The notes below the pieces were generated by a model. It worked only from the letters and a program-made list of their open reading frames with translations, ran no database searches and was not told the DNA's origin. From IMG/VR virus record IMGVR_UViG_643692022_000008: a DNA stretch of 42,310 nucleotides, one strand, 5' to 3'. A program made the translations under genes and the position numbers. Each line of letters begins with the position of its first letter. Position 1 is the first letter of the stretch. Below are positions 21,543-29,018 of this stretch, one piece after another. Origin of the DNA: a virus (taxonomy: Duplodnaviria > Heunggongvirae > Uroviricota > Caudoviricetes).

Positions 21543-22036
21543 TGCTGACCCCACAAACAGATTTCACGCTCAATCTCACGACGAGTCATGAGACCTTTCC
21601 ATTGCTTACCGCCAGCGTATGTCCAGCGCCGTAGCTGATCACATGCGCCTTTGATATCACCCTGGTTTATTTTGCGAAGAAGCGTCGATGTTCTGAAATT
21701 GCCAGCACCCACGTTGTAGACGAACGAGTAAAGAGCGCCGCGCGTTGTTTCCGGTATATCGACTTTGATGTACGGGTTAATTTGTCTGGCGACAGTGGCA
21801 AGGTCTTTATTCAGGAGGGCTTTGCATTCTGCTTCGGTATACGTTTTACCGAGCATAATGTCTTTTCCGGTGTGTCCGTAACATACAGTCCATACACCAA
21901 CTATGTCTTTGTAAGGATTATGTCTCACACCTTCCAGACCATCGTTACCACTTGGGCCAGTGATTAACACAGATGCTATAGCAATAGCCCCGCCACCAAT
22001 AGCAGCAGCAACAGCTTTTCGTAATGATGGAGGCAT
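21539..22036 (-). CDS. R: SAR endolysin (phage 21 R-type lysozyme)
   Basis: N-terminal SAR segment ([20 protein letters not shown]) plus lysozyme domain; near-identical to R21 as I remember it. Confidence 0.9.
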
Positions 22037-22251
22037 TATTCACCTCTCGCAGCCTTGCGCTTATCTTCTTTAATCTTGAAATAAAGGTTTGTCAGGTACG
22101 TCAGCAGGCCAAATACCAAGCTACCCAGCACACCTATTGCTGCCCACTGTGAGGGCGTGACTTTATCGAGCAGCTGTAAAAACCAGTAGCCAGCACTGCC
22201 TGCGGAGGTGCCGTAGGCAATGCCCGTTGTTAACTTATCCATGGATTTCAT
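22036..22251 (-). CDS. S: Pinholin (phage 21 S-type)
   Basis: 71-aa protein [26 protein letters not shown]... with two TM segments, overlapping the endolysin start. Confidence 0.9.
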
Positions 22252-22439: not shown

Positions 22440-23180
22440 TTACATCATGTCTTTTTCTAAAAAAAATCTTGATGAATATTGATGGGGAGGAACACCAAAA
22501 TATCTTCTGAAAACACTTACAAAATATGACGTGTTTTCATAACCGCATATCTCAGCAACTTTTCCAACAGAATATAAATTGTAGCTTAATAACCTTTCCG
22601 CCATCACCATTCGCTCTTCAAGAATTAACTTACTAAATGATAAGCCTTCGTGCTTTAATTTTCTTTTTAACAGACTTTCACTCAGATACAGTCTTGAAGA
22701 TATATCACAAAGTCTCCATGCTGCAGATATATCCGTGTGAATAATAGCCTTAACTTTACTTCCTAAACTATTAAGACATCCAAATAAAAAACTTTGCACT
22801 ATTTTCTCTGAAGATAAGATAGCAAGACATGCAAGTGATATTTGATTTCTAACAAAATCTACAGTTCTGCCATCACAATTCAAGCATGCAATCAAGTTCT
22901 TTAACAATGAAAAATCTTCACATTCCACCATCAAGTATGCCGGATAAAACCTTCTTACAGAAAAAGGTGAGAGTGTGTTGCTTTTAAAGAAATCATTAAC
23001 TGTTTTCTCTTCAACATCTACGATCATTACATGATCTATATTTGATGAAAAAAAATCTTTTAAATTGTAATCAATGAGAACAGCACTTCCCTTTTTAAAC
23101 AAAATATCTTCTTTACCAATTCGGGCATCAAACGAGTTCAACACCAAAATGATAGAACATATGTATGGCATATTATCCAC
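22440..23180 (-). CDS. AraC/XylS-family transcriptional regulator (AT-rich cargo gene)
   Basis: 246-aa ORF with C-terminal AraC-type HTH (VGKVAEICGYENTSYFVSVFRRYFGVPPHQY); very AT-rich gene and 340-bp AT-rich upstream region. Confidence 0.8.
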   Translation of the reverse strand: MDNMPYICSIILVLNSFDARIGKEDILFKKGSAVLIDYNLKDFFSSNIDHVMIVDVEEKTVNDFFKSNTLSPFSVRRFYPAYLMVECEDFSLLKNLIACLNCDGRTVDFVRNQISLACLAILSSEKIVQSFLFGCLNSLGSKVKAIIHTDISAAWRLCDISSRLYLSESLLKRKLKHEGLSFSKLILEERMVMAERLLSYNLYSVGKVAEICGYENTSYFVSVFRRYFGVPPHQYSSRFFLEKDMM

Positions 23181-23520
23181 CTGATATCATTGAGGTTACA
23201 CCAGGTAAGTATAGGTGGAAAATCAATATTCGCCAGTTCAACAATAAGGAAAATCTCATTGCATCACAAGTATAAAATTATGTATTTAACTCACAAAGAC
23301 AAATTATTAAACCAATCTGTTATATTATATATAGCTGCGTGGAATCATAATATTATATTTTGACTGGCATGTTTACCAACTTTAAGTTGCATCTCAATGG
23401 TTTCTTCAGCGTAAACAGAGTTTTTATACAAACTGACACTCTGGGTATCATAGTGTAGTTTTTACGATTGTAAATATCCTGCATGCAGGAACTCATCCTT
23501 TTGGATGATATCGCATACAA

Positions 23521-24480
23521 TTAATTTACCATCAGTCTTAGAGCCAGTTCGTCCGGATAGGGATCGAAGTAATTCTGTGTAAGCAAGTAATCATTAGGAT
23601 ACTCACCCAGATAATGCTTCAGCAGAGTCAACGGCGCAAGAAGAGGTAATGTGCCAGAACGATAGTTAAGTATAACCTCGCTCAACTCTTTACGCTGGCG
23701 TGTACTTAAGTAGTTACTAAAATACCCCTGTATATGCATCAGCACATTCGTGTGATTTTTACGTGATGCAGGTTTTCTGAGAATCGCCATCAGCTTATCA
23801 CGATACACCTCAAAGTATGATTCAAGGTCCGCCCACTCGTGTATTGCAGCCACAAATGGTCCCATATCTTTATAGCCTGCCTGACTATGCGCCAACAACT
23901 GAAGCTTATAACGACTATGAAAAGCTAATAACTCTCTTCTTGATAATTTCTCCTTGTAAAGGTGATTGAGCTCATGCAAAGCAAAAACTCTTTCAACAAA
24001 ATTCTCACGAAGCACTGGATCATGTAATCGCCCATCCTCTTCAACCGGTAGCCAGGAAAACTTTTCCATCAAAGTGCTCGTAAATAGTCCCACTCCATCT
24101 TTACGACCTCGATTACCATTTTCATCATAGACACGCACGCGCTCCATGCCACAGCTGGGAGATTTAGCACAAACCACAAACCCCGATACATCCTTTAATT
24201 TGTCCATATAAGAACGACTAAACTCTGTCATTCTCTCTGTCACATCCTCATTCTGGTCGTGGCTGAAACACATCCGTATATTTCCTTGCGTCGAGCGCAC
24301 AAGACGTAGAGCAGGACGCGGAACTGGCAGCCCTATAGCCATTTCTGGACATACTGGTCTGAATGTTACCCATTCCACTAATTTGTCCATTAAAAAGTCA
24401 GCTCTTTTGTGACCACCATCAAAACGAACAGCAGAACCGGCCAAACAACCGCTGATTCCAATCACAGGTTTTTTTATCAT
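23521..24480 (-). CDS. DUF523 + DUF1722 (YbgA-like) protein, possible Fe-S desulfidase-type enzyme
   Basis: 319-aa ORF; N-terminal Cys-rich region (GISGCLAGS, PVCPEM, CAKSPSCGME) and YbgA-like C-terminal half. Confidence 0.65.
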   Translation of the reverse strand: MIKKPVIGISGCLAGSAVRFDGGHKRADFLMDKLVEWVTFRPVCPEMAIGLPVPRPALRLVRSTQGNIRMCFSHDQNEDVTERMTEFSRSYMDKLKDVSGFVVCAKSPSCGMERVRVYDENGNRGRKDGVGLFTSTLMEKFSWLPVEEDGRLHDPVLRENFVERVFALHELNHLYKEKLSRRELLAFHSRYKLQLLAHSQAGYKDMGPFVAAIHEWADLESYFEVYRDKLMAILRKPASRKNHTNVLMHIQGYFSNYLSTRQRKELSEVILNYRSGTLPLLAPLTLLKHYLGEYPNDYLLTQNYFDPYPDELALRLMVN

Positions 24481-24672
24481 ATTCTCCCCCTTGACTAATT
24501 CATTAACATATAAACTGTGTAGTGCACGGAATAAATTGCCTTTCTGGCGTCATCACTGACAATTTTTCTGTTATGGACTATTCCTAATATAGTATGAAAG
24601 TTCTTTAAGTGATCGGTCGTAATCATCTATCTTTCATACTTACTCTCAACTATCAAAAGTACAGGATTTATT

Positions 24673-25197
24673 ATGAAGTTATGGCCTGTGTTGACTGGCA
24701 TTGCACTCTCTTTCACTCTTATAGCATGTAAGGCCCCGACACCACCTAAAGGTGTGCAGCCGATTACAAATTTTGACGCCAACCGCTACCTCGGAAAATG
24801 GTATGAAATAGCTCGCCTCGAGAACCGGTTCGAACGTGGTCTGGAACAGGTCAGCGCTACTTATGGAAAACGGAACGACGGAGGGATTCGTGTACTTAAC
24901 CGTGGATACGATCCAACGAAAAATAAATGGAGCGAGAGCGAAGGTAAAGCATACTTTACTGGAGATACTAAAACTGCAGCGTTGAAGGTTTCGTTTTTTG
25001 GCCCCTTCTATGGTGGCTATAATGTAATCAAACTGGATGATGAGTATAAGTATGCTCTTGTCAGTGGTCCGAACAGAGAATACCTATGGATTCTGGCAAG
25101 GACCCCAACTATTCCAGATAAAGTAAAAGCAGACTATGTGCGAACCGCTCAAAAGTTGGGATTCAATGTCAATGAATTATTATGGGTTAAACAATAA
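24673..25197 (+). CDS. blc: Outer-membrane lipoprotein Blc (bacterial lipocalin)
   Basis: Lipobox LIAC; NFDANRYLGKWYEIARLENRFERGLEQVSATY and KVSFFGPFYGGYNVIKLD match E. coli Blc motifs. Confidence 0.85.
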   Translation: MKLWPVLTGIALSFTLIACKAPTPPKGVQPITNFDANRYLGKWYEIARLENRFERGLEQVSATYGKRNDGGIRVLNRGYDPTKNKWSESEGKAYFTGDTKTAALKVSFFGPFYGGYNVIKLDDEYKYALVSGPNREYLWILARTPTIPDKVKADYVRTAQKLGFNVNELLWVKQ

Positions 25198-25224
25198 AAT
25201 CCCTACTCGAAATAATACTTATTA

Positions 25225-25251
25225 GAAAAAACCAGCCTTTGGAGAGGCTGG
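25225..25251 (-). terminator. Rho-independent terminator on the minus strand downstream of Q (tR'-like)
   Basis: Hairpin ccagcct/ttggag/aggctgg (25232-25251) followed on the minus strand by UUUUUU (plus aaaaaa 25225-25230), ~100 nt downstream of the Q stop. Confidence 0.6.
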
Positions 25252-25351
25252 CTAAATCAGGAAACAAGCTGTTATATGATAATAACTACGTTGCGATTCC
25301 AACATTTAAAATGTTAGACTAATGACAATCAGACAGCAACTTTTCCTTTAA

Positions 25352-25744
25352 TTATTTCGAACAATCAGCATCCATCTCCAATCGGAGATCCAACACCATC
25401 AGCATACCCTCCACTACGCCCTCAGCTTTCTGGAGCATCCTGCCAACCCAACAATCAGATCGCCCATGCTTACGTGCAAGCGCCATAAAAGTCATGCCGC
25501 CGACATAATAGTCCACCAATAAATCATGCAAATCGCTGTTGTTCTTTTTCAGACGGGCCATGCACCCGCAAATGATCATCGCGTCATCGTCACAACATTG
25601 TGGGCGAGATTTTACTTTTGAAGGAATTAATCCCTTAAAACCGGCGGCAATGGACGACCAGGTCACATCTTCATGATTATTAGCCGCCCACGCTCCCCAA
25701 CGCTCAAGAACCATCTGAATATCACGCATCAACTTACTCCACAA
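25352..25744 (-). CDS. Q: Late antiterminator Q (QuuD-like)
   Basis: [22 protein letters not shown]... Cys-rich Q-family protein; lies between rusA and the lysis region as in DLP12. True start may be the internal ATG (MRDIQ). Confidence 0.8.
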
Positions 25745-27406: not shown

Positions 27407-27916
27407 CTATGTTTCATCGGCGAGGTCATCATCTGTGACAATCATGAGGTTAAAGAATGAAATAATGTTTAACCACTGCGAGTAAATATCGCTCGTCATG
27501 CTGGTTAGCTCCTCTCCGTGAAAGAAGGCATCAGGCCCAACCTCATAGTTGAGCTCTTCAAAAAGCTCCATGTTTAATTGGCTAATAAAGAATTGCTTCA
27601 GACCTTTCATTGCATCCTGATTGTTGGTATCTGAGTAATTTATTATGCTCCCCATTGCCATGTTCAAACATCGAACAATATTGGCTGCGTCATGAAAGCT
27701 CCAGTCAGCCCCTTTCTTTCCTTTTGAGTATGAATTCGCTCTCTCAGCGCAAGCTTTTAATGTCTCGTACAAATACTGCTTTCCTTGCAACTGCAAAGCT
27801 TTTTCGGATGTGGCCCTGCTAGCTTCTGAGGATCGCCATGCTAAATAAGTTGCTACCGCAGATGCGATAGCTGCAATCGCAGAAACTGCATCTATACCGT
27901 TATCCCAACCAGACAT
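27407..27916 (-). CDS. Hypothetical membrane-anchored protein (AT-rich cargo gene in nin region)
   Basis: 169-aa ORF with one N-terminal hydrophobic helix (AVSAIAAIASAVATYLAW); AT-rich; RBS embedded in a hairpin at 27923-27942. Confidence 0.6.
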   Translation of the reverse strand: MSGWDNGIDAVSAIAAIASAVATYLAWRSSEASRATSEKALQLQGKQYLYETLKACAERANSYSKGKKGADWSFHDAANIVRCLNMAMGSIINYSDTNNQDAMKGLKQFFISQLNMELFEELNYEVGPDAFFHGEELTSMTSDIYSQWLNIISFFNLMIVTDDDLADET

Positions 27917-28307: not shown

Positions 28308-29018
28308 CTAATGGTACGCCTCACGCATTTCTGGAGTTGGCTCCTTAGGAACCAGCACCCAACCATCCGGAATCACCGGAGAGTTGCTGACGGGCGACTC
28401 GGAAATTTTTGGCGAAGAATCTAGGGCTGGCGCGGTCTGCATGGTGGTGGGCGACTCGGCTTTTTCGGCACCCTGAAGCATGGCGTCGCGGCATCCGTCA
28501 TACGCTTCTTTCATAGCATCACGCACCCATCCGACAGGTTTCTGCTCAGTCAACTCACACCATTTCTCGAATGTGGGCACAGATACCGGAACTGGCGGTG
28601 CTGCATAAAGCGCCTGACAACTCCAGCCAGACCAGTGAGCACCCTCCGCTCTCTCATCATCTTCAGGGCGAACAAGCGTGACTTCGCTCGGGTGTTTCCT
28701 GTGTGACCACAGCCAGGCTACGGTTTCGGCATTGGCTGGCTCTGGCGGGGCGGAGTAAAAATACTCATCCTCAATCCCATCAACGGGCTTTGAGAAGCCG
28801 ATAAAATCACCATAATGCCAAGGATAGGGGCCGTATGGCTCAGAGGTCACACGACGCCACCGGTGAATGGCAGGCTCCGCTTCGAGCGATGCCAGCGCGA
28901 TACGCAGTGCCGCCAGCGTGTTGCTGTCGCCTTCGTCCAGACCGAACGGGATTTCATCTCTGGCTGCTTCCATGTCGGCAATTTTCTGCTGCAGCCATTG
29001 TTTGGTAATAGTGCTCAT
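28308..29018 (-). CDS. Hypothetical phage protein
   Basis: 236-aa ORF in the early-right operon, overlapping the upstream gene. Confidence 0.55.
   Translation of the reverse strand: MSTITKQWLQQKIADMEAARDEIPFGLDEGDSNTLAALRIALASLEAEPAIHRWRRVTSEPYGPYPWHYGDFIGFSKPVDGIEDEYFYSAPPEPANAETVAWLWSHRKHPSEVTLVRPEDDERAEGAHWSGWSCQALYAAPPVPVSVPTFEKWCELTEQKPVGWVRDAMKEAYDGCRDAMLQGAEKAESPTTMQTAPALDSSPKISESPVSNSPVIPDGWVLVPKEPTPEMREAYH

Follow-up and report, generated by a model that had tools for sequence, protein, structure and literature searches.

Between the antiterminator gene Q and the holin gene S of the window analysed here, a stretch of 42,310 nucleotides of viral DNA (IMG/VR record IMGVR_UViG_643692022_000008), lie three cargo genes: rudS, which encodes a fusion of a TudS (DUF523) and a DUF1722 domain, blc2, which encodes a lipocalin of the Blc type, and a gene for a regulator of the AraC family. 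The explanation that we favour, and to which we give a probability of about 60%, is that these genes form a moron cassette which is exchanged between phages as a unit, that blc2 and rudS were captured together, and that the cassette likely has a role in near-ultraviolet (near-UV) stress. The cargo itself is common, annotated and partly characterised and is not novel. What is new is that the regulator gene belongs to the cassette, in a gene order that is fixed; that the phage blc falls into a paralog group linked to rudS, with the MerR-type control lost and rudS placed behind a late-strand terminator; and that the nearest chromosomal rudS appears to stand in an operon of the photooxidative-stress type. 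The window is an E. coli lambdoid prophage integrated at tRNA-Thr(CGU), and the coordinates of the cargo and its surroundings are collected in Table 1.

The 319-residue protein matches PF04463 ('2-thiouracil desulfurase', formerly DUF523/TudS) at residues 7-149 (E = 3e-40) and PF08349 (DUF1722) at residues 192-309 (E = 2e-40), in both cases far above the gathering scores. A preliminary description of positions 23521-25197 had proposed these two domains, a lipocalin as the neighbouring gene and a location between Q and the lysis genes; the searches bear out all three, and the coordinates and strands that it gave for both open reading frames (ORFs) are exact. Fusions of TudS and DUF1722 have been defined as RudS, a family of [4Fe-4S] desulfidases which convert the 4-thiouridine (s4U) of tRNA to uridine (Jamontas et al., NAR 2024, PMC11417400), so that the link to Fe-S-dependent desulfuration of thiolated bases, also drawn in the preliminary description, was right. 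The panel of that study included RudS_vir, the product H3V29_gp66 of Escherichia phage 1H12, with Cys12, Cys44 and Cys110, and overexpression of all six RudS proteins cut the s4U of E. coli tRNA 4.7- to 26-fold (Jamontas et al., 2024). The RudS of the window shares with RudS_vir its length, its domain architecture, the three cysteines and 93% identity across all 319 residues; the two differ as alleles by 21 substitutions, and it is the RudS_vir allele that was assayed.

Because this 93%-identical phage ortholog has been assayed, the predicted function can be sharpened to the erasure of tRNA s4U: judged by its sequence and through the activity of the ortholog, the 319-residue protein is a RudS, an 'eraser' of s4U8 in tRNA, and not primarily a detoxifier of free bases. 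Of the two roles that the preliminary description had raised, this favours nucleic-acid modification over detoxification. Its term 'Cys-rich' was overstated, as the protein has 5 cysteines in all; among these are the known cluster ligands C12, C44 and C110, which do not vary among the 11 enterobacterial RudS that were aligned. The same alignment shows E46, R55, S107, S109, R19, F20, D21, S239 and R240, all present in the window protein, to be invariant, their counterparts in RudS_KT (E51, R60, S111, S113, R24, Y25, N26, S243 and R244) having been mapped by offset from the published cysteine numbering. Mutations at these counterparts lowered or abolished the activity of RudS_KT. Two of these tRNA-contact positions differ from RudS_KT: the change of Y to F has been described as neutral (Jamontas et al., 2024), and the change of N to D is common to all aligned enterobacterial RudS.

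Comparison with other characterised proteins places the enzyme further. Stand-alone TudS (PDB 6Z92) shares the Cys, CPE and SxSC motifs of the catalytic domain, although the similarity is weak (E = 2e-4 over 60 residues), DUF1722 is lacking, and the substrates of TudS are free thiouracil and 4-thio-UMP, not tRNA (Jamontas et al., 2024). The Salmonella protein ORF319 (RudS_ST, STM1389) has an equal length and equal cysteine positions and belongs to the same enterobacterial RudS clade; a Salmonella fragment matches residues 1-195 with 68% identity, and other chromosomal RudS of Enterobacterales reach 70-77%. In PHROGs, families exist for all three cassette proteins (phrog_3275 for rudS, phrog_1450 for the regulator), each labelled 'unknown function'. 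Among the E. coli matches, there is one protein of 403 residues (P0046) in which a RudS of 99% identity is fused with a GGDEF domain (PF00990); the record comes from a single contig and probably reflects an error of assembly or annotation.

The second cargo protein, of 174 residues, matches PF08212 (Lipocalin_2, E = 7e-44), the NCBIfam model 'outer membrane lipoprotein Blc' (NF007786, 316 bits against a cut-off of 267) and the solved E. coli Blc structures in the PDB (E = 1e-68). Its N-terminus, MKLWPVLTGIALSFTLIAC19-K, holds a lipobox (L-I-A-C19) with lysine at position +2, and a residue other than Asp at +2 after the lipobox cysteine directs a lipoprotein to the outer membrane. With the E. 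coli Blc encoded beside ampC (b4149) it shares the Lipocalin_2 domain, the NCBIfam Blc subfamily, the lipoprotein signal, a similar length and the core motifs, but the phage protein is just 60% identical to this K-12 Blc and 61.5% identical to the CMY-2/ampC-linked, Citrobacter-derived Blc, against 69-82% (77-82% in nearly all loci) to the Blc proteins encoded next to rudS in other Enterobacterales. Because of this difference, the phage blc is assigned by sequence to the rudS-linked paralog group, here called blc2, and not to displaced neighbours of ampC, the origin to which the preliminary description had pointed. K-12 Blc and an Enterobacter Blc2 are 64% identical, and the regions upstream of the phage gene and of K-12 blc share no homology.

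The third cargo gene (22440-23180, minus strand) lies outside the interval of the preliminary description, which omitted it. Its product is identical over the full length, N-terminal domain included, to GadW at 34%, AppY at 32% and YdeO at 32% of positions; among the NCBIfam models YdeO scores highest, with 130 bits against an equivalog cut-off of 348, and every equivalog score lies below its cut-off. By sequence it is therefore a member of the GadW/AppY/YdeO group and the ortholog of no named regulator. AppY of DLP12 and PatE, PsrA and PsrB of O157 prophages (PatE and the Psr proteins by their description) are likewise small, AT-rich, prophage-encoded regulators of the AraC family, and paralogs with 52% identity are found elsewhere in the coliphages mEp332, PhiR70_1 and ev099.

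Several lines of evidence indicate that the three genes behave as one unit. The 3.6-kb segment from Q to S is 99% identical in phage IdasGreatGrand and about 90% identical in eleven infant-gut phages of the '1H12/Lambda_ev' kind; in 1H12 itself the cassette occupies the identical genomic slot, with a Blc that is 97% and an AraC-like regulator that is 83% identical, together with Q and the holin. RudS, Blc and the regulator co-occur in exactly 12 phage records, and the TudS-DUF1722 fusion is limited in cultured phages to these 12 coliphages, all other matches being DUF523-only proteins of about 30% identity. Among the 80 IMG/VR contigs returned with a RudS of at least 98% identity, 74 have the order and orientation Q(+) blc(-) rudS(+) araC(+) holin(+), and the regulator is present in 76. 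As these 80 loci are saturated by E. coli prophage copies (98-100% identity), the contig scan was uninformative on the diversity of more distant phage RudS. The cassette is found in DLP12-like and Qin-like prophage backbones, so the flanking Q and S genes travel with it; the twelve records with all three genes, the order in the contigs and these different backbones are the reasons why we regard it as a unit.

The cargo is also widespread in the host species. At least 80% of the segment is present in 984 of 5426 complete E. coli genomes; rudS is found in 1136 of them, in 1064 at a coverage of at least 80% (about 20%, the commensal strain HS included), and BL21 retains a 147-nt 5' remnant of rudS which is annotated as '2-thiouracil desulfurase family protein'. 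Exact matches to the RudS and Blc sequences each occur on at least 1000 contigs, and to the regulator on 274. Mathieu et al. (Nat Commun 2020, PMC6969025) had, moreover, counted blc among the morons of their infant-gut lambda phages, with more than 50% of these carrying it. In view of these numbers, the words 'unusual' and 'unexpected', which the preliminary description had applied to the cargo, are not supported. Between the alleles of the window and of 1H12 the ratio of nonsynonymous to synonymous divergence (dN/dS) is 0.10 for rudS, 0.065 for blc and 0.26 for the regulator, at a dS of 0.19-0.37, and all three genes are, by this sequence measure, under purifying selection. The cassette is intact even in degraded prophages such as that at locus L004. 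It was further met on two contigs of a metagenome-assembled genome of 'Candidatus Nanosynbacter' (JARKOR010000151.1 and JARKOR010000135.1, loci L057 and L062; 94-100% amino-acid identity), almost certainly through binning contamination.

By composition and position the cargo is that of a moron: the content of guanine plus cytosine (GC) is 43% in rudS, 44% in blc2 and 32% in the regulator gene, as against 50% in the whole window, and the segment, which close relatives lack, is flanked by conserved phage genes. Both blc2 and rudS lie where other lambdoid phages have stx or a porin gene. In Shiga toxin (Stx) phages, stx has the matching position between Q/tR' and holin S, with a different gene content, and porin-carrying relatives of the DLP12 type have an nmpC/ompD-type porin in this slot, antisense to the late strand like blc; Q and S, about 89% identical between the cassette phages and these porin-carrying phages, are all that the two share. 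Compared with stx or porin cargo, the cassette is of mixed content: an enzyme encoded on the late strand, an envelope protein encoded antisense to it, and a regulator.

A probable source of the pair is indicated by chromosomal relatives. In a survey of one genome per species, 62 RudS loci were found in other Enterobacterales, with 66-77% identity and with Citrobacter, Enterobacter, Leclercia, Kluyvera, Klebsiella, Pectobacterium and Lelliottia among the genera. No phage genes flank rudS in these 62 loci, save for one or two marginal exceptions, and the idea that the chromosomal relatives are themselves prophage-borne was rejected on this ground. A Blc-like gene stands upstream of rudS in 42 of the 62, divergent every time, and the gap between the two genes, 192 bp in the phage, measures 188 bp in C. 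sedlakii and 229 bp in a second Citrobacter. This divergent linkage, the matching gap and the similar GC content of the two phage genes are why we suggest that blc2 and rudS were captured together; the lower GC content of the regulator gene fits a separate arrival of the latter. The gap widens to about 1456 bp in Enterobacter and Leclercia, where it encloses a MerR/MlrA-like regulator and a transthyretin-like gene; in Enterobacter hormaechei (locus L015, 4660-5898) these encode an MlrA/MlrB-like MerR regulator of 241 residues and a transthyretin/HIUase-family protein of 137 residues, whose N-terminus, examined by eye, is hydrophobic and resembles a signal peptide.

The nearest chromosomal rudS, that of C. 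amalonaticus (77% identity), is the last gene of an operon (locus L008, 1218-6960) which encodes an FAD amine oxidase, a DUF1365 protein, a cyclopropane-fatty-acid (CFA)-synthase-like protein, a DUF2878 protein, a protein of 191 residues and a DUF3833 protein; such operons ending in rudS are also found in the Citrobacter loci L005 and L006, and two rudS loci of this kind are present in C. braakii ATCC 51113. This gene set is one that we take to mark photooxidative and light-stress regulons, and on this association the C. amalonaticus rudS is classed as ending an operon of the photooxidative-stress type. DUF3833, encoded directly upstream of rudS in Citrobacter, may be lipocalin-like, as we presume from its Pfam clan.

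A search for the donor was negative: among 7662 homologs and the 62 species loci, nothing was found between the roughly 77% identity of Citrobacter and the E. coli prophage cluster at 90% or more. The chromosomal rudS and blc genes have a GC content of 50-62%, against 43-44% in the phage, and the low value in the cassette suggests a long residence in phages or an unsampled source. The blc2/rudS intergenic region is conserved among the phage variants and not with the chromosomal loci. Two short motifs are shared with the latter. The 11-mer GTGCACTACAC stands about 45 nt upstream of the blc2 start in some 40 chromosomal loci (about 4579-4589 in L015) and, in the phage, at window positions 24517-24527, 37-47 nt upstream of the rudS start and inverted relative to blc; the chance probability of sharing it is about 0.01-0.04. 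The second motif is TACTCTCAA.

The regulation of the pair differs between chromosome and phage. Salmonella orf319 and the Enterobacter-type loci are chromosomal and repressed by MerR-type regulators, MlrB (ORF242) and MlrA, at a dyad over the promoter, and a dyad of the form ACTTRnACA-N10-13-TGTnYAAGT covers the rudS promoter in 40 of 60 chromosomal loci. No such dyad was found in the phage cassette, even with 2 mismatches per half-site, nor does the cassette hold a MerR gene or a transthyretin-like gene, and MerR/MlrB-type control of the phage copy was therefore rejected. The association of RudS with a MerR/LitR-type regulator or a light-responsive operon, frequent though not obligatory, is thus not seen here; instead, rudS appears to have become part of a late operon under the control of Q.

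This proposal derives from the anatomy of the region between Q and blc2. Some 100-120 bp past the stop codon of Q, a terminator scan called a strong intrinsic terminator for the late strand (25253-25230), with a 9-bp stem, 5 G-C pairs and a run of six U residues; it folds at -15.6 kcal/mol (z = -3.8), and the U-tract is present on the late strand only. From its position we infer that it is the equivalent of tR' and that the region forms a PR'/tR' unit, for which a candidate PR' (TTGCTG-17-TAACAT) was read by eye, the scan not having called one. The 150 bp next to Q are conserved in the 1H12 and STEC1575 variants of the cassette and differ in the porin-carrying phage ev099. A second terminator follows the regulator gene (a fold of -11.3 kcal/mol, then a U-tract); it is conserved in each of the three cassette variants, and the porin-type phage lacks it. 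A promoter scan of the blc2/rudS gap gave weak promoter-like matches only, no more than expected by chance, and this divergent region presumably carries one or more putative promoters active in the lysogen. The two best sigma70-like matches of the region (10/12) lie in the spacer between rudS and the regulator gene, at 23474-23447 and 23379-23352, and may serve the latter.

Taken together, these observations suggest the following course of events. The blc2 and rudS genes would have been taken together from an enterobacterial chromosome, where the conserved divergent pair stands in or beside clusters for light or photooxidative stress, and the MerR-type repressor would have been left behind. 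In the lysogen, blc2 would be transcribed from a promoter of its own, in the direction opposite to the late transcript, as a lysogenic-conversion gene, and the divergent intergenic region might also drive weak expression of rudS; the terminator after the regulator gene would keep cargo transcription out of the lysis genes. Upon induction, Q-modified RNA polymerase would pass antisense through blc and then through rudS and the regulator gene into S, and because rudS lies on the late strand behind the tR'-like terminator, strong Q-dependent transcription is expected, as for stx. RudS would then convert s4U8 of host tRNA to uridine, an activity known from the 93%-identical ortholog, and a lower s4U content would mean less cross-linking of tRNA by near-UV light (ultraviolet A, UVA) and less of the translation arrest that s4U triggers, to the benefit of the lysogen and above all of lytic growth set off by UV or sunlight. 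Blc2 may add an envelope-lipid component to this response. The literature confirms the link between s4U, growth delay and photoprotection; overexpression of RudS_KT reduces the UVA growth delay, and RudS has been reported in light-responsive operons (Jamontas et al., 2024).

A stronger version of this explanation can be formulated, which we put forward tentatively and consider rather unlikely as it stands: that blc2-rudS is a portable module for tolerance of near-UV light and sunlight, taken by lambdoid phages from a light-stress locus of Enterobacterales, freed of its MerR repressor and wired to Q-dependent late transcription, so that an induced prophage erases s4U. If true, a prophage induced by solar UV would escape the s4U-triggered arrest (growth delay and stringent response) which would otherwise cut phage yield; about a fifth of E. 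coli strains would gain, as lysogens, a tRNA-modification eraser that the field believes to be absent; and s4U levels and UVA responses would be strain-dependent traits determined by phages.

A number of points weigh against the favoured explanation. The desulfidation of tRNA by RudS_vir was lower than that of the other RudS despite good expression, and RudS_vir had the shortest lag of the RudS tested on 4-thiouracil (Jamontas et al., 2024), so its preferred substrate may differ from tRNA s4U. The UVA benefit is known for RudS_KT of Pseudomonas only, under overexpression (Jamontas et al., 2024), and some tRNAs can be destabilised by the loss of s4U. Late expression may come too late for tRNA that has already been cross-linked. 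With regard to regulation, the expression of all three genes is predicted from sequence, PR' is a candidate placed by eye, and a consensus scan of the region found 13 promoter-like sites as compared with 11.1 in shuffled sequence, for which reason promoter mapping by this means was dropped. The functional link between Blc2 and RudS is drawn from their synteny, and the operator dyad of rudS was sought upstream of blc2 and not found.

Among the alternatives, the one that survives best, though we judge it unlikely, is a benefit confined to the phage: RudS, made late, would remodel the host tRNA pool during lytic growth, whether by tuning translation and tRNA stability or by evading a tRNA-directed response, and there would be neither an advantage to the lysogen nor a connection to light, Blc and the regulator being unrelated passengers. 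This would agree with the late-strand position of rudS downstream of a terminator and with its lack of a dedicated regulator, and also with the changes in tRNA-Ser and tRNA-Tyr abundance that follow the loss of s4U. Stx phages, too, carry tRNA genes in the slot between Q and S. The linkage of blc2 and rudS on chromosomes, where there is no phage context, nevertheless argues for a shared cellular function; the persistence of an intact cassette in degraded prophages, where a lytic function cannot be selected, speaks in the same direction; and no defence system is known to read s4U. PADLOC models, moreover, matched none of the three cassette proteins, and a reading of the cassette as a defence system was rejected on this result.

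It is still less probable that RudS serves mainly in salvage or detoxification, with free thiolated pyrimidines and nucleotides such as 4-thiouracil and 4-thio-UMP as its main substrates and tRNA as a side substrate. The short lag of RudS_vir, observed in uracil auxotrophs on 4-thiouracil, and its relatively low tRNA activity at a high protein level are what this alternative would lead one to expect; however, no RudS supported growth in the way TudS did, the study decided against thiouracils as primary substrates, and every RudS tested, RudS_vir included, lowered tRNA s4U (Jamontas et al., 2024). In addition, the tRNA-binding DUF1722 domain is under purifying selection, and its residues S239 and R240 are invariant. 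Least probable of all is neutral cargo that hitch-hikes between the recombination-prone genes Q and S with no selectable function. The slot does exchange its cargo freely (porin, stx or cassette) and the composition is atypical for the host genome, with 32-44% GC against 50%, but the low dN/dS at this degree of allele divergence, intact reading frames in about 1000 genomes, the fixed gene order and the retention of all catalytic residues tell against neutrality.

The identities of the genes being settled, the interest of this cargo comes from its setting. Two sources, the 2024 RudS paper (PMC11417400) and a 2026 review in MMBR, state that E. coli lacks RudS, yet a prophage-borne rudS is present in about 20% of the complete genomes; a phage gene may hence make strains differ in their s4U content and in their physiology under near-UV light. 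An eraser of a tRNA modification in the slot used for stx expression is, furthermore, a testable case of a phage altering the epitranscriptome of its host upon induction. Finally, the pairing of blc2 and rudS in Enterobacterales gives the bacterial lipocalins, long unexplained, a neighbourhood of light and photooxidative stress. The RudS paper treats the phage rudS as one test case and mentions neither its position in the late operon nor the pairing with a lipocalin gene.

Table 1. Positions of the cargo genes and of the features that surround them in the window
Feature	Position	Strand	Remarks
Q antiterminator (QuuD-like)	25352-25744	(-)	PF06530, E = 2.5e-51; upstream boundary of the cargo
Q-proximal late regulatory region	25222-25351	(-)	Candidate PR' and intrinsic terminator
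blc2, Blc-type outer-membrane lipoprotein lipocalin, 174 aa	24673-25197	(+)	Antisense to the late transcript
blc2/rudS divergent intergenic region, 192 bp	24481-24672
rudS, TudS (DUF523) + DUF1722 fusion, 319 aa	23521-24480	(-)	Late strand
AT-rich spacer between rudS and regulator gene	23181-23520	(-)
AraC-family regulator	22440-23171	(-)	243 aa from ATG; 246 aa from GTG at 23180; PF12833/PF00165
Intrinsic terminator ending the cargo segment	22357-22378	(-)	Directly upstream of holin S
Holin S, P21 type	22036-22251	(-)	PF04971, E = 2e-35; downstream boundary of the cargo

The surroundings of the cassette are those of a lambdoid prophage. The Q gene is annotated as 'antiterminator Q family protein' by the Prokaryotic Genome Annotation Pipeline (PGAP) in matching genomes, and holin S is followed downstream by lysozyme, Rz, Bor (plus strand) and terminase genes. 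The window also encodes an S24 repressor, a replication protein O, a large terminase subunit and tail fibres; its integrase gene adjoins tRNA-Thr(CGU), and a host gene of the aldehyde-dehydrogenase family, similar to proA, lies at its right end.

Within the cassette, two small ORFs, of 55 residues (23353-23520) and 43 residues (24495-24626), were searched for family matches and gave none. Both are annotated in one phage record, neither is called by PGAP, and the longer is missing from 1H12; they were set aside as genes on these grounds, the 55-residue ORF being probably not a gene. A structured RNA in the cassette was likewise rejected, as an Rfam search of it returned nothing at the gathering score, its sole sub-threshold match being the terminator hairpin. 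Elsewhere in the window, two ORFs of the nin region, at 27407-27916 (minus strand; 169 residues, about 42% GC) and 28308-29018 (minus strand; 236 residues), have no Pfam match and may be additional accessory genes, and the tail-fibre region holds, at 951-1149 on the minus strand, an Rfam match to the small RNA IS009, with 211 bits against a gathering score of 117.

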